A DNA stretch of 13,231 nt from Tubiluchus corallicola (taxonomy: Eukaryota > Animalia > Priapulida), in assembly GCA_030141605.1 (NCBI GenBank), contig JAQGDQ010002517.1:1-13231 (forward strand). The letters are read 5' to 3'. The notes beneath the pieces are model-generated. The model saw only the letters and a list, made by a program, of their open reading frames with translations. It was not told the DNA's origin and did no database searches. This document shows positions 1 to 13,125 of the stretch, piece after piece. The position numbers and the translations under genes were made by a program. Each line of letters starts with the position of its first letter. Positions within the stretch are counted from its first letter, which is position 1.

Positions 1-597
1 AAAATTGATGATTTCTTAAAAAAGCATTTTTCATATTTTATTGAGGTTTATAATGACTTTCCTTACAATATACAGAGGTGGGATGCTATACGCTATCTTA
101 TTCTTTACCAGTATGGAGGTCTGTATGTAGATTTTGATTTTGAATGTTTAGAAAACTTAGAACCTTTGTTAGAAAACAAAGAGTGTTGTTTTGGTTACGA
201 GCCTGATGGACATAAATACTTGCCTCCCAAATATGATAAAATTGTAGGTAATGCCATAATGGCAACTGTTCCCAGACATCCATTTTATAAGCTTATTATT
301 GATAAGATGTATAAAGCCCACCCACACAGTAATATAAAAGAGAAGTTATATAGAAATAAAATTTTTATGGTTCTTTTTACTACGGGACCTGGATTAGTTA
401 CAGAGGTTTATGATGGTCACCAAAACAAAGAAGAAATTACAATTTTTGATTCAAAATACTTATATCCACTTACCAACACAGAAGTAAAAATTCTTGTTTT
501 AGACAAGGAAAATCCTGAGTTGTTAGATGAAAAACTAAGAGATGCCTATGCGGTTCATTACCTTTTTTCATTATGGATTCCCCAAGTAAATGAATAA
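1..597 (+). CDS. Glycosyltransferase, GT32/DXD sugar-binding (Och1/SUR1-like) family, copy 1, 5'-truncated by the window edge
   Basis: Frame is open from base 1 (KIDDFLKKHF...) to TAA at 595-597. Contains RWDAIRY..LY.YGGLYVDFD (DxD) and TTGPG. Collinear with copies 2-4. The listed start at 166 is internal. Confidence 0.9.
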   Translation, partial: KIDDFLKKHFSYFIEVYNDFPYNIQRWDAIRYLILYQYGGLYVDFDFECLENLEPLLENKECCFGYEPDGHKYLPPKYDKIVGNAIMATVPRHPFYKLIIDKMYKAHPHSNIKEKLYRNKIFMVLFTTGPGLVTEVYDGHQNKEEITIFDSKYLYPLTNTEVKILVLDKENPELLDEKLRDAYAVHYLFSLWIPQVNE

Positions 598-647
598 AAA
601 AATAGAAGTAATAAATTTTAAACTTTAATTTGAATTTTTATAAACCT

Positions 648-1376
648 ATGTCATTAAGAATACCGAGAATTATTCATCAAATATGGGAAGGCAAACCTCT
701 GCCTGAGTTTTATAAATTATTAGGAGAATCTTGGCAGAAAAAACATCCTGACTGGGAATATGTTTTTTGGGATGCAAAAAAAATTGATGATTTCTTAAAA
801 AAGCATTTTTCATATTTTATTGAGGTTTATAATGACTTTCCTTACAATATACAGAGGTGGGATGCTATACGCTATCTTATTCTTTACCAGTATGGAGGTC
901 TGTATGTAGATTTTGATTTTGAGTGTTTAGAAAATTTAGAACCTTTGTTAGAAAACAAAGAGTGTTGTTTTGGTTACGAGCCTGATGGGCATAAATCGTT
1001 AGCTCCCAAATATCATAAGATTGTATGCAATGCCATAATGGCAACTGTTCCAGAGCATTCATTTTATAAGCTTATTATTGATAAGATGTATAAAGCCCAC
1101 CCACACAGTAATATAAAAGAGAAGCTATATGGAGATAAAGCTTCTATGGTTCTTTTTACTACGGGACCTGGATTAGTTACAGAGGTTTATGATGGTCACC
1201 AAAACAAAGAAGAAATTACAATTTTTGATTCAAAATATTTATATCCACTCACTCACGAAGAGATACAAACCCTTGTTTTAGATAAGAAAGATCCTGAATT
1301 ATTAGACAAAAAGTTAAAAGATGCCTATGCGGTTCATTACTTTTTTTCATTATGGATTCCCCAAGTAAATGAATAA
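648..1376 (+). CDS. Glycosyltransferase, GT32/DXD family, copy 2
   Basis: IPRIIHQIW N-terminal motif, YGGLYVDFD and TTGPG. ATG at 648 (MSLRIP) is preferred over the in-frame TTG at 630. Confidence 0.92.
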   Translation: MSLRIPRIIHQIWEGKPLPEFYKLLGESWQKKHPDWEYVFWDAKKIDDFLKKHFSYFIEVYNDFPYNIQRWDAIRYLILYQYGGLYVDFDFECLENLEPLLENKECCFGYEPDGHKSLAPKYHKIVCNAIMATVPEHSFYKLIIDKMYKAHPHSNIKEKLYGDKASMVLFTTGPGLVTEVYDGHQNKEEITIFDSKYLYPLTHEEIQTLVLDKKDPELLDKKLKDAYAVHYFFSLWIPQVNE

Positions 1377-1426
1377 AAAAATGGAAATAATAAATTTTAA
1401 ACTTTAACTTGAATTTTTATAAACCT

Positions 1427-2161
1427 ATGTCATTAAAAATACCTAGAATTATTCATCAAGTATGGGAAGGCAAGGAAGAACCTCTGCCTGAGTTTTATAA
1501 ATTATTAGGAGAATCTTGGCAGAAAAAACATCCTGACTGGGAATATGTTTTTTGGGATGCAAAAAAAATTGATGATTTCTTAAAAAAGCATTTTTCATAT
1601 TTTATTGAGGTTTATAATGACTTTCCTTACAATATACAGAGGTGGGATGCTATACGCTATCTTATTCTTTACCAGTATGGAGGTCTGTATGTAGATTTTG
1701 ATTTTGAGTGTTTAGAAAATTTAGAACCTTTGTTAGAAAACAAAGAGTGTTGTTTTGGTTACGAGCCTGATGGGCATAAATCGTTAGCTCCCAAATATCA
1801 TAAGATTGTATGCAATGCCATAATGGCAACTGTTCCAGAGCATTCATTTTATAAGCTTATTATTGATAAGATGTATAAAGCCCACCCACACAGTAATATA
1901 AAAGAGAAGCTATATGGAGATAAAGCTTCTATGGTTCTTTTTACTACGGGACCTGGATTAGTTACAGAGGTTTATGATGGTCACCAAAACAAAGAAGAAA
2001 TTACAATTTTTGATTCAAAATATTTATATCCACTCACTCACGAAGAGATACAAACCCTTGTTTTAGATAAGAAAGATCCTGAATTATTAGACAAAAAGTT
2101 AAAAGATGCCTATGCGGTTCATTACTTTTTTTCATTATGGATTCCCCAAGTAAATGAATAA
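1427..2161 (+). CDS. Glycosyltransferase, GT32/DXD family, copy 3
   Basis: Same motifs as copy 2; ATG at 1427. The N-terminus matches copy 4 and the remainder matches copy 2. Confidence 0.92.
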   Translation: MSLKIPRIIHQVWEGKEEPLPEFYKLLGESWQKKHPDWEYVFWDAKKIDDFLKKHFSYFIEVYNDFPYNIQRWDAIRYLILYQYGGLYVDFDFECLENLEPLLENKECCFGYEPDGHKSLAPKYHKIVCNAIMATVPEHSFYKLIIDKMYKAHPHSNIKEKLYGDKASMVLFTTGPGLVTEVYDGHQNKEEITIFDSKYLYPLTHEEIQTLVLDKKDPELLDKKLKDAYAVHYFFSLWIPQVNE

Positions 2162-2211
2162 AAAAATGGAAATAATAAATTTTAAACTTTAACTTGAATT
2201 TTTATAAACCT

Positions 2212-2952
2212 ATGTCATTAAAAATACCTAGAATTATTCATCAAGTATGGGAAGGCAAGGAAGAACCTCTGCCTGAGTTTTATAAATTATTAGGAGAATC
2301 TTGGCAGAAAAAACATCCTGACTGGGAATATGTTCTCTGGGATGCCAAAAAAATTGATGATTTCTTAAAAAAGCATTTTTCATATTTTATTGAAGTTTAT
2401 GATGACTTTCCTTACAATATACAGAGGTGGGATGCTATACGCTATCTTATTCTTTACCAGTATGGAGGTCTGTATGTAGATTTTGATTTTGAGTGTTTAG
2501 AAAACTTAGAGCCTTTGTTAGAAGATAAAGAATGTTGTTTTGGCTATGAACCTGATGAGCACAAATATTTAACTCCTAGATATAATAAAATTGTAGGTAA
2601 TGCCATAATGGCAACTGTCCCAGAGCATCCGTTTTACAAACTTATCATTGATAGAATATATAAAACACATCCACACAGTACAAAAAAGGAACAATATGGT
2701 AAAAAAGATTTTATGGTTCTTTTCACTACAGGACCTGGACTGGTCACAGAAATTTATGATACTTGCCAAAATAAAGAAGAAATCACTGTTTTTGATTCAA
2801 AATACTTATACCCTCTTACTAACGAAGAAATAAGAACTCTTGTCTTGGATAAGGAAAATCCTGAGTTGTTAGATGAGAAATTAAAAAACGCTTATGCACT
2901 TCACTATATGTTTTCATTATGGTCTAAACAACTAAATGAACAAAAATTATGA
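2212..2952 (+). CDS. Glycosyltransferase, GT32/DXD family, copy 4
   Basis: Same motifs; ATG at 2212. The C-terminal half is the most divergent of the four. The stop codon overlaps the next start (ATGA, 2949-2952). Confidence 0.92.
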   Translation: MSLKIPRIIHQVWEGKEEPLPEFYKLLGESWQKKHPDWEYVLWDAKKIDDFLKKHFSYFIEVYDDFPYNIQRWDAIRYLILYQYGGLYVDFDFECLENLEPLLEDKECCFGYEPDEHKYLTPRYNKIVGNAIMATVPEHPFYKLIIDRIYKTHPHSTKKEQYGKKDFMVLFTTGPGLVTEIYDTCQNKEEITVFDSKYLYPLTNEEIRTLVLDKENPELLDEKLKNAYALHYMFSLWSKQLNEQKL

Positions 2953-5345
2953 GATGTTATCAATTATTTATTATTTTTATTTTAGTTGTAGAGACCGTTC
3001 AATCCCAAAACTTTAAGGTAGAAGGCACAATATTAGATGGTAATAGCAATGTTTTGCCCTATGCCAATCTGCAAATACTAACCCTTGATAGTGTTTTTTT
3101 CAAAGGAGGGATTTCGGGGGACAACGGAGAGTTCCTTTTTGAGGATATTCCAGCAGGTGAGTATTTGTTTTATGCCTATTATTTGGGGTATGAACAATAT
3201 GTAAGTAATATTACTATAAAATCAGATGCCCAGTTAGATAATATTAGGTTACAACAACAATCTACAGCCATAGAAGAAGTAGTAGTAAAGGCATTAAAAC
3301 CTACAGTAGAGCGTAAGATAGATAGATATGTAGTTTCTTTAAGTGGTACTTATGTAGGTGGTAGGACGACTTTAGATTTACTGAAATTTGCACCTGGCGT
3401 AACAGTAGATTTAGATGGTAACATATTACTCAACAGACAGGATGTTACAGTATTTGTGAATGATAGGCAACTGCGATTGAGTGGTAAACAATTACAAAGT
3501 TACTTGCTAAGTCTCAATAGTGAAGATATAGAAAGCATAGAGGTACTACCTAGCCCCAAGGCAGATATGGATGCAGAAGGCTCAGGAGGTATTATAGTAA
3601 TCAACTTAAAGAAAGGAGCTAAAAGAGGCACTAATGGTTATGTGAATGCAGGATACAGCAAGGGTATAGCTCCTGCTGCTGATGGTAATATAGGCTTGAA
3701 CTACAACAAGAACAATCTCACCCTATATGCAAATTATGCTTATCATTACACTGAGCCTTATGAATACTATGAGATGCTCTATACACAGGAAAATAGTGAA
3801 ACTACTTTTTTTGATTATGTCAAAAACTATCTTTATAATAATTCTCATACTGTAAGAGGCGGTTTGGATTATATTATTGGGAATAGACACAACATAGGGT
3901 TAGAAGTAGATGGCAATACCTCAAGGAGTGATGCCAAAAAGGCTTATACCAACACAGAAATTTATACGGGTGAGGTTTTAGATACCCTTATTCTAGGAGA
4001 TTTCCCCAAAGTAAACGCTTCAAACAATTTAGGGGTTAATTTCAATTACATATGGGATATAGATGACAAGGGTAGGAAGTTTAAATTGATTACAGATTAT
4101 TATACCTACTCTCAAGAAGTAGAAGATGACTACAATAGTGACTATTACAGTGGTGACAATCTATATGATATAGTGTATTCTATTAATAGGCAAAGTACTA
4201 ATAGTAATGAATTAGATATTTATACAGTTCGTGTAGACTACATTCATCCCTTCAACAATAACACAAAATTGGAAACAGGTTTGAAGTTTAGCGATGTAGT
4301 CTCTATTACAAACAATAGGTTCTTTTTCTTGGAGGGCGATGAGTGGGTAGTTGATACTGGAAGAACAGATAAGTTTAGCTATACTGAAAATATTTATGCA
4401 GGCTATGCAACTTTCGAGTCTAAATGGAAGAAGTTGGAGTATTCATTTGGGCTTCGTGCAGAGCATACCCAGTTTGACACCTATTCTCATACCTTAGATT
4501 CTACTACCAGTAATACCTACACAGAGTTATTTCCTACGGTATTTTTCTCACATCCCATTTTTGAAGAAGACAAGATTATCATTAACTACAACAGAAGAAT
4601 ACGGAGACCATCTTACGAGTGGATGAATCCCTTTGAATATTTTTATGGTGAATACACTATAGGAAAGGGGAATCCTAATATTATTCCCTCTTATTCTCAA
4701 AATATAGAACTAAACTATGCACTCAAAGGCAAACATTATTTTACCTTCAAATATACACATAGAGATGATATAATAGGAGAATTTTACTATAGAGACCCTG
4801 AAACAGATATTGCTACAAGGACTTTTAACAATTTAGCCAAATCACAATTTTTAACTTTCGATATTTTTACTCCCTTTAAAATTTATAAATGGTGGACGAC
4901 AGACAATTATGTGTCGTTTAGTTACAATCTTTTTGAAGAAGAAAAAATAGATTATGCAGTCCAATTCCCCGTTGTCTTTATTTCTTCCAATCATTATTTT
5001 CTCTTACCCAAAGATTTTAGATTTGAAATGAATATAGCTTTTAGGTCAAAAGATGTAACATATACATATACGACTATGGAGACTTCTATGTTTTTTTTAA
5101 ACCTCTCTATTCAAAAGAGCTTTTGGAAGAACAAAGCCAATCTAAGAATATTTGCAAATGACATTTTATACAGAGGTGGTAGATGGGAAGCTTCTGAAGA
5201 TTATCTGGGACAGTATAATTATATTTATGCTGAAGGAGACACCCGTAGGGTAGGTATATCATTTAAGTACAATTTTGATTGGGGAAAAAGTTTTTCAGTA
5301 AAAGGCAATGAGAAAAGTAATAGAGACGAATTGCAAAGAAAGTAA
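2949..5345 (+). CDS. Outer-membrane beta-barrel / TonB-dependent receptor-like protein with N-terminal carboxypeptidase-regulatory-like domain, copy 1
   Basis: 798 aa. Has a 19-aa signal peptide followed by Gln, a VEGTILD..LPYAN..G..DNGEF domain, a plug-like segment (IESIEV..SP.A..DAEGSGGII.I.LKK) and aromatic alternating beta-strands ending VGISFKYNF. Confidence 0.88.
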   Translation: MRCYQLFIIFILVVETVQSQNFKVEGTILDGNSNVLPYANLQILTLDSVFFKGGISGDNGEFLFEDIPAGEYLFYAYYLGYEQYVSNITIKSDAQLDNIRLQQQSTAIEEVVVKALKPTVERKIDRYVVSLSGTYVGGRTTLDLLKFAPGVTVDLDGNILLNRQDVTVFVNDRQLRLSGKQLQSYLLSLNSEDIESIEVLPSPKADMDAEGSGGIIVINLKKGAKRGTNGYVNAGYSKGIAPAADGNIGLNYNKNNLTLYANYAYHYTEPYEYYEMLYTQENSETTFFDYVKNYLYNNSHTVRGGLDYIIGNRHNIGLEVDGNTSRSDAKKAYTNTEIYTGEVLDTLILGDFPKVNASNNLGVNFNYIWDIDDKGRKFKLITDYYTYSQEVEDDYNSDYYSGDNLYDIVYSINRQSTNSNELDIYTVRVDYIHPFNNNTKLETGLKFSDVVSITNNRFFFLEGDEWVVDTGRTDKFSYTENIYAGYATFESKWKKLEYSFGLRAEHTQFDTYSHTLDSTTSNTYTELFPTVFFSHPIFEEDKIIINYNRRIRRPSYEWMNPFEYFYGEYTIGKGNPNIIPSYSQNIELNYALKGKHYFTFKYTHRDDIIGEFYYRDPETDIATRTFNNLAKSQFLTFDIFTPFKIYKWWTTDNYVSFSYNLFEEEKIDYAVQFPVVFISSNHYFLLPKDFRFEMNIAFRSKDVTYTYTTMETSMFFLNLSIQKSFWKNKANLRIFANDILYRGGRWEASEDYLGQYNYIYAEGDTRRVGISFKYNFDWGKSFSVKGNEKSNRDELQRK

Positions 5346-5354
5346 TGACATACT

Positions 5355-5583
5355 TATATGTACAATGAGCGGAAGCCAAAAAGCTAAGAAAATAGAGTAG
5401 GCATAACCTTTAAAACGTCATTCTTTGAACATTACAAATTTGTATATATACAATTAGTGGAAGCCGAAAAACTAATAAAAGAGTAGGCATAACCTTTAAA
5501 ACGTTATTCTTTGAATATTACAAATTTGTATATATACAATTAGTGGAAGCCGAAAAACTAATAAAACTAATAAAAGAGTAGGC
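5355..5583 (+). repeat. About 2.6 copies of an 86-88 bp direct repeat containing GGAAGCCRAAAA..AGAGTAGGC
   Basis: GGAAGCC occurs at 5371, 5459 and 5545. AGAGTAGGC ends at 5402, 5488 and 5583. The intervening sequences are near-identical. The third copy has an internal 9-bp duplication (ACTAATAAA, 5557-5574). Confidence 0.95.
5459..5488 (+). ncRNA. Candidate structured RNA element (GCC-GAA...AGUA-GGC hairpin, resembling the Flavo-1-type Bacteroidota motif); also at 5371-5402 and 5545-5583
   Basis: GCC/GGC pairing flanks GAA and AGUA, the loop-E/sarcin-ricin arrangement. The family assignment is from recall and has not been verified. Confidence 0.45.
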
Positions 5584-5606: not shown

Positions 5607-5777
5607 ATGGAAAATAAAAAGCAAAATGAAAAGCAAGAAGCTAAAAAAGTTCTTTTAGCTCAGGAAGCTGAGAATCTTCTAAGTGCTGAGATGTTAAAAT
5701 TTAAGGGAGGAGGTGCTTCGACCAGATGGTGTATCTCTAGACAATGTAATACTTATGCATGTTACACTAAATCTTAG
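5607..5777 (+). CDS. RiPP precursor peptide with double-glycine leader, 56 aa: MENKKQNEKQEAKKVLLAQEAENLLSAEMLKFKGG-GASTRWCISRQCNTYACYTKS
   Basis: Translated by hand from ATG 5607 to TAG 5775-5777. The LSAEMLKFKGG leader end fits the GG-motif pattern. The core carries C-x4-C-x4-C. It lies directly upstream of the rSAM/SPASM and C39 ABC transporter genes and is below the ORF-track size cutoff. Confidence 0.9.
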   Translation: MENKKQNEKQEAKKVLLAQEAENLLSAEMLKFKGGGASTRWCISRQCNTYACYTKS

Positions 5778-5864: not shown

Positions 5865-5896
5865 AAATTTCCTGCCAAAAACTGGCAGGAAATTTT
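5865..5896 (+). terminator. Stem-loop between precursor and maturase genes (terminator/attenuator or mRNA stabiliser)
   Basis: Perfect 13-bp inverted repeat AAATTTCCTGCCA (5865-5877) / TGGCAGGAAATTT (5883-5895) with a 5-nt loop. The T-tail is short. Confidence 0.7.
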
Positions 5897-5930: not shown

Positions 5931-7409
5931 ATGAATATAACATTTAATCCTGATTATATAATTAGACCAGATAAAGGAAAAGCATTGTTATTGTCAAAAG
6001 ACGTTATGAGGTTTAATCAAGAAACCAGAGAAGGTCGTTTTATGTCAAATATACATCCCATTCACGCAATGGTACTATCATTTATGAATGGGGAAGAAAA
6101 AGGGAAATCTATTGACAAGGCTGCAAAATATTTGAATATCTCGTCTGCAAAAGTGAAGGATTTTGTAAACTCTTTAATAGAAAACAAAGAAAGAAAAACG
6201 ATTCAAATAGGAGCTCACTCAACTTCTACTTTTCCTATACATACACTCATTCAATCAGATAAAAAAAATACCAGAGTATATAACCCCGACGATTTTTTGT
6301 ATGACAAACTAGACTTAACAAACAATAGAAATTCTACTCCATCGGATGTAACTTTGATGGTAACAACTCAGTGTGCTACCAATTGTATTTATTGCTATGC
6401 TGACAGAAAAAAAGTATCCACTAAAATTCCTCTTGATAGAGTCAAAGAATTGATACAAGAAGCAGTTCAATTTAAAGCAAGAAGTTTTGGTGTAGTAGGA
6501 GGAGACTTTTTTGCATACAAGCACTGGAGAGAAGTCTTAAAAGAACTATACAAATATAGTTTTCATCCATATCTATCAACAAAAGTTCCCCTTCAAGAAA
6601 AAGATATTGCTTTTTTAGCAGATATTGGTATTGTAGACATACAAATTTCATTAGATACTTTGGTAGAAGACAATCTTATTGCACTGTTACAGGCAAATTC
6701 TCATTATCCTAATAGAATACAAGAGACTTTAAGATTGCTTGACAAATACAATATAAATACAATTATACATACCATTGTTTCAGATATTAATGGTCATATA
6801 GAAGATATCAAAAGTGTTTATGATTTTATAAAGAAATTGACAAATATCTCACAATGGATAATAGAACCTGCAATAAATTCATCTTATACCCAACAAGAAT
6901 TTTCTGAAATAAAAGTAAAACGAGATAATTTAAAAAAACTCACTAATTATACCAGTGAATTAAAAGAAAAGAATAACAAATTTGAAATATACCCTCCCAA
7001 TTTAGCAGAAACACCTAAGGAACTATCTATAAAAGGGGGGAAAGATAATTTTTCTAATATGTCAATCTGTTCTGGTAATCTTTCCCAATTGTTTATTTTA
7101 CCTGATGGGCAGGTAACAATATGTGACCAAATGTATTGGAGACCTCGATTTATTCTGGGTAATATATTGGAGCAGAGCTTAGAAGAAGTTTGGAACTCGG
7201 AAAAAGCTCGTAGTCTCTACTATATAAAAAAAGAAGCCATTCAAGACAAAAGCGTTTGTAAATCGTGTTCTAACTTTGAAAAATGCAGATACCAAAATGG
7301 AAGCGCCTGTTGGAAAGATGTTATTCAAGCTTACGGAGAAGAAAATTGGGACTATCCAGATCCAAAATGCCCTAAAGCTCCTAAAGTAACGAAAGATATT
7401 TATGTTTAG
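5931..7409 (+). CDS. Radical SAM/SPASM-domain peptide maturase
   Basis: 492 aa. CATNCIYC fits CxxxCxxC; GGD replaces the usual GGE. SPASM-type cysteines: CSGN...ILPDGQVTIC...LGNI...CKSC.....C.......C...CP. Confidence 0.93.
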   Translation: MNITFNPDYIIRPDKGKALLLSKDVMRFNQETREGRFMSNIHPIHAMVLSFMNGEEKGKSIDKAAKYLNISSAKVKDFVNSLIENKERKTIQIGAHSTSTFPIHTLIQSDKKNTRVYNPDDFLYDKLDLTNNRNSTPSDVTLMVTTQCATNCIYCYADRKKVSTKIPLDRVKELIQEAVQFKARSFGVVGGDFFAYKHWREVLKELYKYSFHPYLSTKVPLQEKDIAFLADIGIVDIQISLDTLVEDNLIALLQANSHYPNRIQETLRLLDKYNINTIIHTIVSDINGHIEDIKSVYDFIKKLTNISQWIIEPAINSSYTQQEFSEIKVKRDNLKKLTNYTSELKEKNNKFEIYPPNLAETPKELSIKGGKDNFSNMSICSGNLSQLFILPDGQVTICDQMYWRPRFILGNILEQSLEEVWNSEKARSLYYIKKEAIQDKSVCKSCSNFEKCRYQNGSACWKDVIQAYGEENWDYPDPKCPKAPKVTKDIYV

Positions 7410-9615
7410 AAAGCAGTTCCCCTCTTGCTATCAACGCGATGCTATGGACTGTGGTGCTGCTTGTTTAAAGTCTATAACACGGTATTATGGCAAAAACTTC
7501 GATTTAGAAGAAATAAGGGAGAAATGCTACATTACAAACGAGGGTGTTTCGTTGATGGGAATAGCAGAGGCTGCCAAACATTATGGATTATCTACAAAGG
7601 GTTATAAACTAACTATCAAAGCCTTAAAAGAAAGATTCCAAAAACCATGTATTCTGCATTGGAATCAAAATCATTTTGTAGTTCTTTACAAAATAACTAA
7701 GAAAAAAAAAACTACAAAATTCCATATTGCAGACCCTGGGACAGGCAAAATAGTCTTAAACGAGAAAATCTTTAAGAAAGCTTGGCTTGGAGCTAAGAAC
7801 TACAATGAGAAAGAAAAAAAAATGGGGGCTACATTGTTCTTAGAGCCTACAAAATTATTCTACCAACAAAAAAGCCAAAAACCTAAACTACACTTTAACT
7901 TCCATAAAATATGGGCATACACTAAGCCCTATAAAAAAGCATTAAGGCAACTTTTATACTGTGTACTGTTTGTCAATCTTATTCAGTTTGCCTTTCCCTT
8001 TCTTACACAAATCATTGTTGATATTGGCATCAACCAGCAAAGTGTCAATATCATACTAATGATACTAATAGCCCAAGTGGTATTGTATATAAGTACCAAT
8101 CTTTCTGATTTTGTAAGAAGATGGTTGCTACTACAAGTCAACAGTAGGATAAATATATTCATGATTTCAGATTTTTTACTTAAGCTTACCCAACTGCCTA
8201 TACGTTTTTTTGATAATAAACTATTAGGGGATATCCTGCAAAGAATAAATGACCATTCTAAGATAGAACACTTCTTAACCTCTACTGTAACCAATATTTT
8301 CTTTTCATTTACTACCTTGATTATATTTGGTATAGTTCTCTCTATTTATAGTTTTCAACTCTTTTTATTGTTTTTAGCAGGTAGTGTGCTTTACATATTT
8401 TGGATTTATATATTCTTAGAAAAGCGCAAAGAAATTGATTATGCCCGTTTCATTCAGCAGTCAGCAAATAGTAGTAATTTGGTAGAGTTCATCAGGGGGA
8501 TGAAGGATGTGAAGCTCTACAACTGCCATAATGAAAAACGCTGGGAGTGGGAAAAAATACAAGTAAAGCTTTTCAAACTTAACTTAAGTAGTCTATCTAT
8601 TGAGCAATATCAAAGCATAGGTAGTCTGCTTATCAATCAAATAAAAAATGTACTGATTACTTTCCTAAGTGCTAAAATGGTCATAGAAGGTGAGTTATCC
8701 TTGGGAATGATGCTATCCGTTCAGTTTATTGTAGGGCAACTAGAAGGGCCTATTAATCAAACCATCGAATTTATGCACTCTTGGCAAGATGCTAAAATTT
8801 CATTCGAAAGGCTGGGCGAAGTGCATAAAAAAGAAAACGAAGAAAAAGGAACGGAAATAGCCATCTCTAACACTACACAATACAGTATTGCTCTAAAAAA
8901 TGTCTCTTTCCAATATGATGGGCCCTATTCCCCTAAGGTATTACAGAACATAAACTTGGAAATCCCTTTTGGCAAGACGACTGCCATTGTTGGTACCAGT
9001 GGAAGTGGTAAAACTACATTGATAAAAATGCTTTTGGGCTTTTACGAGCCTATTGAGGGTGAAATAACGATAGGTAATAATCTGTTGAAAAAGATTAATC
9101 TAACTACGTGGAGAAATCGCTGTGGGGTAATTCTGCAAGATAGTTTTATCTTCTCAGATACCATAGCTAACAACATAACCCTATCGGAAGAGAATATTGA
9201 CTATAAGAAGCTGGAATATGCTACCCAAATGGCAAACATACTTGACTTAGTGGAATCTCTACCTTTAAGATTTAATACTAAAATAGGGGCAGACGGACAT
9301 GGCCTAAGCCAAGGACAGCAACAAAGGCTTTTGATAGCAAGGGCTATTTACAAAGATCCTGACTACATATTCTTTGACGAAGCTACCAATTCATTGGATG
9401 CAAGCAATGAAAACGAAATAATGGACAATATAGAGGTTTTCAGTAAGGATAAAACAGCTATTATTATTGCTCATAGGTTTAGCACTATAAAAAATGCAGA
9501 CCAAATTATAGTATTGCAAGAAGGAAAAATCCTTGAAAAAGGAAAACATAAGGAACTGATGAAGGATGGCAAAGTATACTACAACTTAATGAAAAACCAA
9601 TTGAACTTAAATTAA
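7402..9615 (+). CDS. Peptidase C39-containing ABC transporter (PCAT, SunT/LagD-like)
   Basis: QRDAMDCGAACL (catalytic Cys), HWNQNHFVV, ADP, a transmembrane domain, Walker A GTSGSGKTT, signature LSQGQQQR, Walker B IFFDEAT and AHR. Confidence 0.96.
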   Translation: MFRKQFPSCYQRDAMDCGAACLKSITRYYGKNFDLEEIREKCYITNEGVSLMGIAEAAKHYGLSTKGYKLTIKALKERFQKPCILHWNQNHFVVLYKITKKKKTTKFHIADPGTGKIVLNEKIFKKAWLGAKNYNEKEKKMGATLFLEPTKLFYQQKSQKPKLHFNFHKIWAYTKPYKKALRQLLYCVLFVNLIQFAFPFLTQIIVDIGINQQSVNIILMILIAQVVLYISTNLSDFVRRWLLLQVNSRINIFMISDFLLKLTQLPIRFFDNKLLGDILQRINDHSKIEHFLTSTVTNIFFSFTTLIIFGIVLSIYSFQLFLLFLAGSVLYIFWIYIFLEKRKEIDYARFIQQSANSSNLVEFIRGMKDVKLYNCHNEKRWEWEKIQVKLFKLNLSSLSIEQYQSIGSLLINQIKNVLITFLSAKMVIEGELSLGMMLSVQFIVGQLEGPINQTIEFMHSWQDAKISFERLGEVHKKENEEKGTEIAISNTTQYSIALKNVSFQYDGPYSPKVLQNINLEIPFGKTTAIVGTSGSGKTTLIKMLLGFYEPIEGEITIGNNLLKKINLTTWRNRCGVILQDSFIFSDTIANNITLSEENIDYKKLEYATQMANILDLVESLPLRFNTKIGADGHGLSQGQQQRLLIARAIYKDPDYIFFDEATNSLDASNENEIMDNIEVFSKDKTAIIIAHRFSTIKNADQIIVLQEGKILEKGKHKELMKDGKVYYNLMKNQLNLN

Positions 9616-9623
9616 TACTTCTG

Positions 9624-10097
9624 ATGAACACTCCTCATATAAATAGCAAAGAATTTACAGATATAATGAAGTTTCAACCCAGTAACTTATCAAAAATAGT
9701 AGTTGGTGGTTCACTTTTCATTATTGTGTTGCTTGTTATTTTTGCTTTGTTTATTGAAGTACCAGAGGAAAAGCTTAATTTTCAGGTAAAAGCAAATGAA
9801 ATTTCTTTGTTGACAGAAGATACTGCTTCCCTGTTAGCTGAAGAGAGTTATCAAAAGATATTAACGACAGAGCAAAAAATCTCTATTCTTTCCCTTAATC
9901 AACACATAAAAGGAGTAATTTATAGGGTAGTGAAAAAACCTACTAATCCTCGCGGTAAAATATCAGTCATAATGACAATAGAGAAAAATACTCTTGACCT
10001 AAAAGAACTCACACCACAAGACACCCTAAAAGTAGAGATAGTAGTAAAGAAAATTCCAGTCTTAGAAAAACTTATTCCTTTTATTAAGAGAAAATAG
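9624..10097 (+). CDS. Short HlyD/membrane-fusion-like accessory protein with a single N-terminal TM helix
   Basis: 157 aa with one hydrophobic segment (IVVGGSLFIIVLLVIFALFI). Starts 8 nt after the PCAT stop. The C-terminus VEIVVKKIPVLEKLI resembles HlyD-family ends. The product call rests on context. Confidence 0.55.
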   Translation: MNTPHINSKEFTDIMKFQPSNLSKIVVGGSLFIIVLLVIFALFIEVPEEKLNFQVKANEISLLTEDTASLLAEESYQKILTTEQKISILSLNQHIKGVIYRVVKKPTNPRGKISVIMTIEKNTLDLKELTPQDTLKVEIVVKKIPVLEKLIPFIKRK

Positions 10098-10126: not shown

Positions 10127-10351
10127 TGACCTCCTCCCAAAAAACTGGACAGATATAAATCAGAGATAGTCGGTAAATAGTTTTAAGTTTAAAATAATAC
10201 GTTATTTACAATGAAAAAATCAAAACTTGCAGAATCACAAGTTGTATTTGCATTAAGACAAGCAGAGACTGGCACACAAGTTTCAGAAGTATATCGAAAA
10301 CTAGGCATAAGTGAAGCTACTTTTTACACAAGGAGAGGGGATCAGAGGTCA
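10127..10351 (+). mobile_element. IS3-family remnant (left end plus truncated orfA)
   Basis: TGACCTCCTCCCAAAAAACTGGACAG at 10127 resembles an IS3 left inverted repeat. A possible partial right end (GGAGAGGGGATCA / GAGGTCA) lies at 10332-10351. No orfB/DDE domain is present. Confidence 0.7.
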
Positions 10352-10447
10352 AATCTTACTCTGCCTCACAACATCACTAAGCGTTCCCGTAATAACTTCA
10401 AGAAAGCTATCAATTCGGAGGAAAATATCTTAACAAAAATCAATTAA
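10211..10447 (+). pseudogene. Truncated IS3-family transposase OrfA (HTH) running into unrelated sequence
   Basis: MKKSKLAESQVVFALRQAETGTQVSEVYRKLGISEATFY is a typical OrfA N-terminus. Similarity stops at about 10327, where NWKKKY-like sequence would be expected. Confidence 0.85.
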
Positions 10448-10729: not shown

Positions 10730-13125
10730 ATGAATTATTTTTAGTATGCTTGCTACTCTTTCTACATATAGTAACTCTTCAAGGACAAAACTTTAAGGTA
10801 GAAGGCACAATATTAGATAATGAGAGCAATGTTTTGCCCTATGCCAATCTGCAAATACTAACCCTTGATAGTGTTTTTTTCAAAGGAGGGATTTCGGGGG
10901 ACAACGGAGAGTTTATTTTTGAGGATATTCCAGCAGGTGAGTATTTGTTTTATGCCTATTATTTGGGGTATGAACAATATGTAAGTAATATTACTATAAA
11001 ATCAGATGCCCAGTTAGATAATATTAGGTTACAACAACAATCTACAGCCATAGAAGAGATAGTAGTAAAGGCATTAAGACCTACAGTAAAGCGTGAGATA
11101 GATAGGTATGTAGTTTCTTTAAGTGGTACTTATGTAGGTGGTAGGACGACTTTAGATTTACTGCAATTTGCACCTGGCGTAACAGTAGATTTAGATGGTA
11201 ACATATTACTCAACAGACAGGATGTTACAGTATTTGTGAATGATAGGCAACTGCGATTGAGTGGTAAACAATTACAAAGTTACTTGCTAAGTCTCAATAG
11301 TGAAGATATAGAAAGCATAGAGGTACTACCTAGCCCCAAGGCAGATATGGATGCAGAAGGCTCAGGAGGTATTATAGTAATCAACTTAAAGAAAGGAGCT
11401 AAAAGAGGCACTAATGGTTATGTGAATGCAGGATACAGCAAGGGTATAGCTCCTGCTGCTGATGGTAATATGGGCTTGAACTACAACAAGAACAATCTCA
11501 CCCTATATGCAAATTATGCTTATCATTACACTGAGCCTTATGAATACTATGAGATGCTCTATACACAGGAAAATAGTGAAACTACTTTTTTTGATTATAT
11601 CAAAAACTATCTTTATAATAATTCTCATACTGTAAGAGGCGGTTTGGATTATATTATTGGGAATAGACACAACATAGGGTTAGAAGTAGATGGCAATACC
11701 TCAAGGAGTGATGCCAAAAAGGCTTATACCAACACAGAAATTTATACGGGTGAGGTTTTAGATACCCTTATTCTAGGAGATTTCCCCAAAGTAAACGCTT
11801 CAAACAATTTAGGGGTTAATTTCAATTACATATGGGATATAGATGACAAGGGTAGGAAGTTTAAATTGATTACAGATTATTATACCTACTCTCAAGAAAT
11901 AGAAGATGACTACAATAGTGACTATTACAGTGGTGACAATCTATATGATATAGTGTATTCTATTAATAGGCAAAGTACTAATAGTAATGAATTAGATATT
12001 TATACAGTTCGTGTAGACTACATTCATCCCTTCAACAATAACACAAAATTGGAAACAGGTTTGAAGTTTAGCGATGTAGTCTCTATTACAAACAATAGGT
12101 TCTTTTTCTTGGAGGGCGATGAGTGGGTAGTTGATACTGGAAGAACAGATAAGTTTAGCTATACTGAAAATATTTATGCAGGCTATGCAACTTTCGAGTC
12201 TAAATGGAAGAAGTTGGAGTATTCATTTGGGCTTCGTGTAGAGCATACCCAGTTTGACACCTATTCTCATACCTTAGATTCTACTACCAGTAATACCTAC
12301 ACAGAGTTATTTCCTACGGTATTTTTCTCACATCCCATTTTTGAAGAAGACAAGATTATCATTAACTACAACAGAAGAATACGGAGACCATCTTACGAGT
12401 GGATGAATCCCTTTGAATATTTTTATGGTGAATACACTATAGGAAAGGGGAATCCTAATATTATTCCCTCTTATTCTCAAAATATAGAACTAAACTATGC
12501 ACTCAAAGGCAAACATTATTTTACCTTCAAATATACACATAGAGATGATATAATAGGAGAATTTTACTATAGAGACCCTGAAACAGATATTGCTACAAGG
12601 ACTTTTAACAATTTAGCCAAATCACAATTTTTAACTTTCGATATTTTTACTCCCTTTAAAATTTATAAATGGTGGACGACAGACAATTATGTGGCGTTTA
12701 GTTACAATCTTTTTGAAGAAGAAAAAATAGATTATGCAGTCCAATTCCCCGTTGTCTTTATTTCTTCCAATCATTATTTTCTCTTACCCAAAGATTTTAG
12801 ATTTGAAATGAATATAGCTTTTAGGTCAAAAGATGTAACATATATATATACGACTATGGAGACTTCTATGTTTTTTTTAAACCTCTCTATTCAAAAGAGC
12901 TTTTGGAAGAACAAAGCCAATCTAAGAATATTTGCAAATGACATTTTATACAGAGGTGGTAGATGGGAACATTCTGAAGATTATCTGGGACAGTATAATT
13001 ATATTTATGCTGAAAGAGACACCCGTAGGGTAGGTATATCATTTAAGTACAATTTTGATTGGGGAAAAAGTTTTTCTGTGAAAGATAATGAAAAAAGCAA
13101 TCAGGATGAGTTGCAAAGACAATAG
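10730..13125 (+). CDS. Outer-membrane beta-barrel / TonB-dependent receptor-like protein, copy 2; probable true ATG at 10730 is out of frame by one base (ORF open 10750-13125)
   Basis: The mature region differs from copy 1 at about 19 of 779 residues (counted by eye). One extra T in the run at 10738-10742 would give MNYFLVCLLLFLHIVTLQG-Q and a 798-aa product, the same length as copy 1. Confidence 0.85.

Follow-up and report, generated by a model that had tools for sequence, protein, structure and literature searches.

The 56-amino-acid open reading frame that lies between an outer-membrane protein gene and a radical SAM/SPASM enzyme gene in the window (the whole 13,231-nucleotide stretch of DNA analysed here) is almost certainly the precursor of a RiPP, and the enzyme encoded next to it probably forms short thioether rings from each Cys of the precursor core to a residue downstream of it, in whatever register.

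The precursor gene and its neighbours

The genes of the cluster all lie on the forward strand, in the order outer-membrane beta-barrel protein (OMP), precursor, radical SAM/SPASM maturase (rSAM), C39 peptidase-ABC transporter (PCAT) and 157-amino-acid ORF (Table 1). The peptide reads in the sequence as the original prediction had described it: its leader ends in LSAEMLKFKGG, the two Gly being G34 and G35, and its 21-residue core holds three Cys (Cys42, Cys47 and Cys52), six Ser or Thr, one Trp and two Tyr. We follow the register of the family in placing the cut after G35, because in an alignment with 32 homologous precursors this residue falls on their invariant Gly. The leader is predicted to serve both in binding to the RRE and as the C39 cleavage signal.

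Table 1. Features of the precursor cluster in the window.
Feature	Position	Strand	Description or evidence
Tandem DXD glycosyltransferase genes, at least four	1..2952	+	PF04488, GT32-type; 84-98% identical
798-aa outer-membrane beta-barrel protein	2949..5345	+	OMP_b-brl_3, carboxypeptidase-regulatory and plug-like domains (Pfam)
56-aa precursor peptide gene	5607..5777	+	ATG-to-TAG ORF; leader HMM 23.6 bits; alignment with 32 homologues
Leader, aa 1-35	5607..5711	+	Motif (E/D)AxxLLxxEMxx(I/L)KGG; HMM match residues 17-35; G35 invariant, L25 nearly invariant
Core, aa 36-56 (21 aa)	5712..5774	+	C-x4-C-x4-C, ending C-x3-Ser
Strong hairpin in the precursor-rSAM spacer, with a T-rich tail	5865..5895	+	1 found, 0.2 expected
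492-aa radical SAM/SPASM maturase	5931..7409	+	PF04055, PF13186
737-aa C39 peptidase-ABC transporter	7402..9615	+	PF03412, PF00664, PF00005
157-aa protein	9624..10097	+	One N-terminal hydrophobic stretch

No direct homologue of the peptide was returned by phmmer, a search limited for 56 residues by word size and E-value, and no Pfam or NCBIfam model reached its cut-off; we attribute these blank searches to hypervariable cores. We therefore gathered loci with homologous rSAM genes, 160 in all (80 of 349 confirmed in genome contigs and 80 of at least 505 from metagenomes), among which the best identity to the window rSAM is 47%. A small ORF with a GG, GA or AG leader and at least two Cys occurs within 900 bases upstream of the rSAM in 117 of the 146 loci that have at least 450 bases of upstream sequence, as against 1 of 146 in the opposite-strand control, and such a precursor ORF is found in 53 of the 58 closest loci. 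The conserved GG/Cys pattern that had been expected upstream of homologous rSAMs is thus present, and across these loci the GG motif follows an acidic/hydrophobic leader, as in PCAT substrates.

A leader HMM made from 53 homologous precursors, with the window peptide excluded, gives this peptide 23.6 bits. The next best of the 239 stop-to-stop frames of the window scores 2.4 bits, and none of 2000 shuffles reaches the window score, the best of them having 13.3. The matched residues 17-35 include the EAxxLL part of the motif, which the selection rule did not require; the window peptide itself was missed by the regular-expression precursor rule solely on account of the Phe four residues before its cut. 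Searching with the precursor profile yielded 28 proteins, and a Cx4Cx4C core is present in none of the 22 examined. The best ESM Atlas matches of the precursor (0.89-0.90) are unnamed or a type-A lantibiotic, and are leads only. A match to Cfr (E = 0.006-0.01, 16 bits for a cut-off of 550) was rejected as compositional.

The leader score, the position of the ORF, a conserved hairpin and the intact neighbouring genes make it hardly credible that this is a chance or dead ORF, even if such a reading could draw on the blank phmmer result and on the RBS and the Bacteroidetes -7 promoter match, neither of which is positive. No Bacteroidetes TAnnTTTG element was found upstream of the precursor, and sigma-70 promoter matches are at chance level. 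The hairpin, which stands between precursor and rSAM, is likely to be a terminator or an mRNA-stabilising stem that favours the precursor over the enzyme; at close homologous loci 34 of 35 spacers fold at z ≤ -2, compared with 2 of 35 coding controls (mononucleotide shuffles). Just upstream of the precursor, positions 5391-5562 hold two tandem 86-nt copies (97% identical) and the start of a third, and these may duplicate promoter or regulator sites.

The PCAT has the catalytic Cys, His and Asp (Gln11, Cys17 and His91 with the Asp that follows it are all present), and a homologue occurs in 52 of 68 loci with long flanks. The 157-amino-acid protein, for which no Pfam or NCBIfam match exceeded its cut-off, is 29% identical (E = 5e-6) to the ORF that follows the PCAT at locus L001, and judging by its sequence it may be a short membrane-fusion-like export partner. 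The OMP has homologues in 30 of the 68 long-flank loci and may serve either uptake or export. The OMP gene is present twice (2949-5345 and 10750-13125), once on either side of the cluster; the copies lie 7,780 bases apart and share 98.5% identity over 2,342 bases, and after the second copy there is no second precursor region within the window. The start of a truncated IS3-family transposase (PF01527, E = 4.6e-6) occupies positions 10211-10447, between the 157-amino-acid ORF and the second OMP.

The radical SAM/SPASM maturase

The maturase carries the radical SAM motif CxxxCxYC (C148, C152 and C155) and seven SPASM Cys (380, 398, 443, 446, 452, 460 and 480), which are kept in 136-138 of 138 homologues; besides these seven, no column of the SPASM domain is more than 30% Cys. 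All of 69 aligned sequences keep Asp477, which could be an eighth cluster ligand, a role for which PqqE provides a precedent. Seven SPASM Cys with an open AuxI site have been described for CteB, QhpD, Tte1186 and RumMC2 (PMC10352776, PMC8172795, PMC8326336).

Residues 1-112, when folded alone, give an RRE fold. The top VIA-align matches of this part are the RRE domains of MibB (Z 8.0, rmsd 3.5, 85 aligned), TigE (Z 7.9, rmsd 2.5, 80 aligned), PqqD (Z 6.1) and CteB (Z 5.6), and also of TbtB and lasso B1, with Z ranging from 5.6 to 8.0, and Foldseek agrees on an RRE at E = 0.03 or weaker; the scores of this modelled domain are middling, and its matches are consistently RREs. The predicted complex of rSAM and precursor is a weak pass at 0.56 (best of three controls, 0.10), with runs agreeing in at least 81% of contacts and a partner pLDDT of at least 56. 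Passes at or below 0.60 were seen for 5 of 78 solved complexes and for every one of the 4 mismatches that passed; the present pass may be driven by likeness to solved RRE-leader complexes.

The model of the whole enzyme is confident (pLDDT 90.7), and its closest folds are SuiB, SkfB, CteB, PqqE and anSME, at 13-19% identity. The top whole-fold match is SuiB (TM 0.63, 16% identity), a Lys-Trp crosslinker. When the family profile is compared with PDB sequences, the best match is the sactisynthase SkfB (E = 6e-17, the next being 3e-8), and CteB is among the matches (E = 5e-8). The generic SPASM model TIGR04085 is the only NCBIfam maturase-type model over its cut-off (37.6 bits for a cut-off of 27). 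The best score below cut-off is that of WgkB (48.7 bits, cut-off 650), with DynA also among the best, and the models for SkfB (36.9 of 300 bits), PapB (36 of 340), anSME (43 of 349) and SbtM (31 of 350) are all below theirs; the AlbA model, with a best E of 1.5e-14 among 69 members, likewise did not identify a known sactisynthase. The SkfB and AlbA results lower the probability of membership of those subfamilies, not that of a likeness in working. With SuiB as the best fold and WgkB as the best NCBIfam score, the similarity of the enzyme does not fix its chemistry.

These same matches to SuiB, WgkB and DynA might suggest that Trp41, Tyr50 or Tyr53 takes part in an aromatic crosslink of the streptide, triceptide or Itf kind, and there is an example in ItfD of Bacteroides thetaiotaomicron, which is described as crosslinking Trp and as belonging to a cluster with a PCAT and a TonB-dependent transporter (PMC11002830). 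The composition of the cores makes this very improbable: of 53 close cores, 4 have Trp and 16 have Tyr, and of the 111 unique cores at homologous loci, many of which have no aromatic residue, 15 have Trp and 51 have Tyr. Aromatics are also not enriched by position, with no offset near Cys at which |z| is above 2.2, so that the crosslinks at Trp or Tyr offered as an alternative in the original prediction are poorly supported.

In a tree of 138 rSAMs the window enzyme is placed, weakly, by the clades with C-x1-C-x5-C and C-x2-C-x5-C cores (FastTree 0.85; SH-aLRT 60.5 with 38 of the 138). Named loci with homologous rSAMs are almost all from Bacteroidota. Family rSAMs with no detectable upstream precursor occur at L013, L057, L020/L021/L102 and L022; the order at L013 and L057 (PCAT, short partner, rSAM, OMP) suggests that there the precursor may lie elsewhere. 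At L019, L037 and L023 there are two family or related rSAM/SPASM genes per cluster, and L019 also has several glycosyltransferases and a second C39 domain.

Core composition and the proposed rings

Cys is the only conserved residue in the 111 unique homologous cores, which otherwise vary widely. Of 444 Cys gaps, 240 are gaps of 2 and 3, and 53 are gaps of 4. The Cx4C gap makes up 1 of 209 gaps in the close clade, and consecutive Cx4C is seen in five distant cores, which means that the spacing in the window is unusual for its clade, not for the family. Cores that end in C-x3-Ser/Thr are concentrated in the weakly supported sister clades of the window (14 of 15, versus 4 of 94 elsewhere, with L118 and L122 dropped).

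The residues around Cys were assessed in 80 representative cores with Cys fixed and the other residues shuffled, related cores being treated as independent after dereplication at 55%. Downstream of Cys, Thr is enriched at +1 (z 8.1), and Ser (z 5.6), Gly (z 11.2) and aliphatic residues (z 8.5) at +2, +3 and +4, respectively. Gly fills 116 of 325 positions at +3, and at a distance of 4 to the following Cys the +3 residue is Gly or Ser in 62 of 84 cases. Thr is enriched at +1 and +4, not at +2, and Asp and Glu are depleted downstream of Cys. Upstream the signals are weaker; Gly at -4 has z 4.3, which is partly a mirror of +3/+1 in repeats. At least four residues follow the last Cys in 81 of 82 representative cores, whereas shuffles average 35 with a shorter tail, and the tail is exactly 4 or 5 residues long in 27 of the 82. 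By comparison, fewer than four residues precede the first Cys in 14 of the 82, and GG may be succeeded at once by the first Cys. The tail rule was kept in all six new candidates (one of them doubtful) from a separate genome sample.

The core statistics suggest a sactipeptide. The single likeliest register for the proposed rings, which we hold with somewhat less than even confidence, is Cys(i)-Calpha(i+3), that is, sactionines of the streptosactin type. Attack at Calpha is favoured, the conservation of any acceptor side chain being about 40% at the highest. In the CxxC-repeat clade the +3 residue is itself Cys in 85 of 85 cases, so that not all Cys of the family can follow a single register, and the Gly at +3 might mark a turn instead of an acceptor. 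The original prediction had proposed repeated rings of the sacti- or ranthipeptide kind on a GG precursor for the adjacent rSAM and C39-ABC exporter. Both the chemistry, as the likeliest one, and the pairing of genes are supported.

Under this scheme, the RRE of the rSAM would bind the leader, a three-Cys auxiliary cluster would hold the donor thiol, as the analogous CteB and RumMC2 suggest, and the 5'-deoxyadenosyl radical would abstract hydrogen from an acceptor that follows each Cys at a distance of 2-4 residues. In the window peptide this would create three unnested rings, from Cys42 to residue 45, Cys47 to Tyr50 and Cys52 to Lys55. The C39 domain of the PCAT is predicted to cut after Gly35, and the 21-residue product would leave through the PCAT and its short partner. 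As a candidate role for the product, a narrow-range antibacterial or signalling peptide is most likely.

The +3 residues of the window core (Arg or Gly, Tyr and Lys) are mostly not the Gly or Ser of the family. The choice at residue 45 comes from a substitution, A5739G, at the first base of codon 45, which changes Arg to Gly in contigs from two runs (X1 and X2) of one sample and is the sole substitution listed over 4,586 bases between the window and these runs. Contigs from both runs cover the ORF, and one from X1 joins it to the rSAM. The window may itself derive from this sample, and the substitution then reflects either strain variation or a wrong base in the window. The Gly of the X1/X2 allele stands at +3 of Cys42, where Gly is the commonest residue of the family.

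The window core can be divided into three non-overlapping +3 rings or into three C-x-Ser/Thr units, and it fits either. In the second case, each Cys(i) would be joined to Ser/Thr(i+2), giving Cys42-Ser44, Cys47-Thr49 and Cys52-Thr54, with the bond at Thr Cgamma (a ranthipeptide link, as in CteB) or at Calpha (9-membered rings, as in QmpB). All three window Cys have Ser or Thr at +2 (P = 0.025 for that offset, although 0.18 when any of 8 offsets is allowed for), the family has Ser or Thr there in 154 of 401 cases (z 5.4), and the +2 position is free in CxxC repeats. CteB, which the family profile matches, is reported to link Cys32 to Thr34 at Cgamma (PMC8326336), and rings with one intervening residue are described for QMP. 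We nevertheless think this register unlikely. Its signal is one of Ser and not of Thr (z 1.2 for Thr alone), Ser lacks a Cgamma, at 62% of +2 positions there is neither of the two, the PapB model falls far below its cut-off, and +2 rings alone leave the wall at four tail residues unexplained.

It is also unlikely, in our view, that the peptide is a real substrate on which the rSAM makes a change other than a thioether, such as oxidation or another Cys-directed modification or epimerisation, with thiols or disulfides left for metal binding or folding. Enzymes of the rSAM/SPASM type do include anSME, SbtM and epimerases, no close relative of the window enzyme is characterised (13-19% being its best identities to solved structures), and repeats of CxxC and CxxxC resemble metal-binding motifs. 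However, the residue bias is directed downstream and the cores show the tail wall, the seven-Cys SPASM pattern and the low anSME and SbtM scores point away from such enzymes, and the spacing is too variable for one disulfide or metal fold. We thus prefer short downstream thioether rings.

Related systems and the glycosyltransferase array

Streptosactin (GggA/GggB) resembles the proposed product in its rSAM/SPASM maturase, its alternating donors and acceptors, and its +3 rings onto Ser and Gly, to be compared with the +3 Gly/Ser bias of the family; it is described as having two unnested 4-residue sactionine rings, including Cys31-Gly34 (PMC8172795, PMC13361665). It differs in being streptococcal, regulated by Rgg/SHP, two-ringed and served by a separate protease, while the window system is of Bacteroidota type, with a GG leader and PCAT, three Cys and predicted rings. 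The SCIFF ranthipeptide thermocellin (CteA/CteB) shares an RRE, rSAM and seven-Cys SPASM domain, and its Cys-Thr(i+2) link recalls the C-x-T motif that the window core has twice. CteB is only 13-14% identical to the window rSAM in structural alignment, and the SCIFF precursor is conserved, with six Cys and one bridge, in contrast to the hypervariable cores and PCAT of the present family.

The GG-Bacteroidales set (TIGR04149 precursor, TIGR04148 maturase, TIGR04150 pseudo-rSAM) is likewise reported to combine Bacteroidota hosts, a GG leader, rSAM and PCAT (PMC4573289). TIGR04149 gave weak scores for 8 of 22 homologous precursors (10.4-18.2 bits, cut-off 25), none of eight family rSAM genes in five genomes coincides with any of 13 TIGR04148 matches, and the window has no pseudo-rSAM. 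CefA (NF038108) and the Cxxx-repeat targets (TIGR04114/04117/04118) are similar in their periodic Cys, C-x4-C placing a Cys at every fifth residue, and homologues reach at most 14.5 of 30 and 12.2 of 35 bits with these models. Scoring against GG-Bacteroidales and Cys-repeat models had been suggested as a check on the precursor; the window peptide matched none of TIGR04149, NF038108 and TIGR04114-04118 at E ≤ 1. A Bacteroides origin of the SPECO Cys-Gly crosslinker was not borne out by the literature searched.

The closest counterparts in architecture include BGC1 and BGC2, Bacteroidales rSAM-only PCAT clusters with GG precursor and OMP, which may belong to the rSAM family of the window; the Itf and BGC8 clusters differ by a YcaO, and the SPASM domain of BGC8 has eight Cys (PMC10352776). 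As that paper describes clusters of GG precursor, rSAM and PCAT as general in Bacteroidales, this kind of cluster is already known, and the architecture is no surprise. We found no characterised member of the window's rSAM family, a weak negative given that most subscription papers lay outside the search and that rSAM-RiPP atlases (JACS, Angewandte) may list it. Curated models do not cover the maturase family, and none of its products is characterised in the literature searched. The family is widespread, with 349 confirmed stretches in genome contigs, and is found in 14 of 401 genomes sampled around one genome (G001), two of the 14 being seeds. It pairs one fixed leader with a freely varying Cys periodicity. 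A rule that places the acceptor downstream, at +3 or +2, would cover more than 100 precursors, many from gut Bacteroidales, and the 21-residue, three-Cys core of the window is among the shortest and hence an easy first substrate.

The tandem DXD glycosyltransferases could add sugar to Ser, Thr or a free Cys, a modification compatible with rings. The OMP and precursor genes are preceded by four GT32-type genes of the same orientation, family rSAMs lie by GT32 and GT2-GT10 genes at L032 and with GT2, UDPGT-type and GT7-type genes at L019, DUF6734 flanks L001, L081, L074 and L019, and areas with rSAM and glycosyltransferase genes are reported from Bacteroidales (PMC10352776). That the product is additionally a glycopeptide is still, we believe, unlikely. 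A GT32 homologue occurs in 1 of 160 homologous loci (L032; 1 of 68 with long flanks), so that glycosylation is at most a local add-on, and other glycosyltransferases are found in a minority of loci; among 65 neighbouring genes compared with Pfam (60 out of the 114 listed, with 5 others) they occurred at L019 and L032. Enzymes of PF04488 usually extend existing glycans, and we found no literature that joins GT32 or PF04488 with RiPP terms. The odd number of Cys, which together with the many hydroxyls had at first been taken to offer glycosylation sites, is not special, as 43 of 111 homologous cores have an odd count. The genes may encode local tailoring enzymes; they are not a conserved feature of the family.

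A bolder combination, which we consider decidedly unlikely, is that Bacteroidota possess, in this rSAM family, a spacing-tolerant 'in-line' thioether synthase, in which one conserved leader and RRE would let a Cys at every 3 to 8 residues be ringed just downstream whatever the side chain, and that the three-ring Cx4C product of the window is then glycosylated by the four tandem, diverging GT32 enzymes. If true, this would be a class of glyco-sactipeptides with no described member and a natural tool for promiscuous macrocyclisation.

The neighbour scan also found DUF6734 or LanC-like genes at four loci. In the closest loci (L001:4278-6723, L081:117-2435, L074:1779-2663 and L019:5365-6219) DUF6734 genes come immediately before the precursor, accompanied by LanC-like genes in L001 and L081, and the cores at these four loci are only 13-15 residues long (C-x-C-x5-C). 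The glycosyltransferase genes of the window repeat with a period of about 780-785 bp and differ in patches; copies 2 and 3 are nearly identical, and copy 4 and the cut-off copy 1 have diverged in the C-terminal half. The array has the look of copies recently amplified and then diversified, or else of an artefact of assembly.
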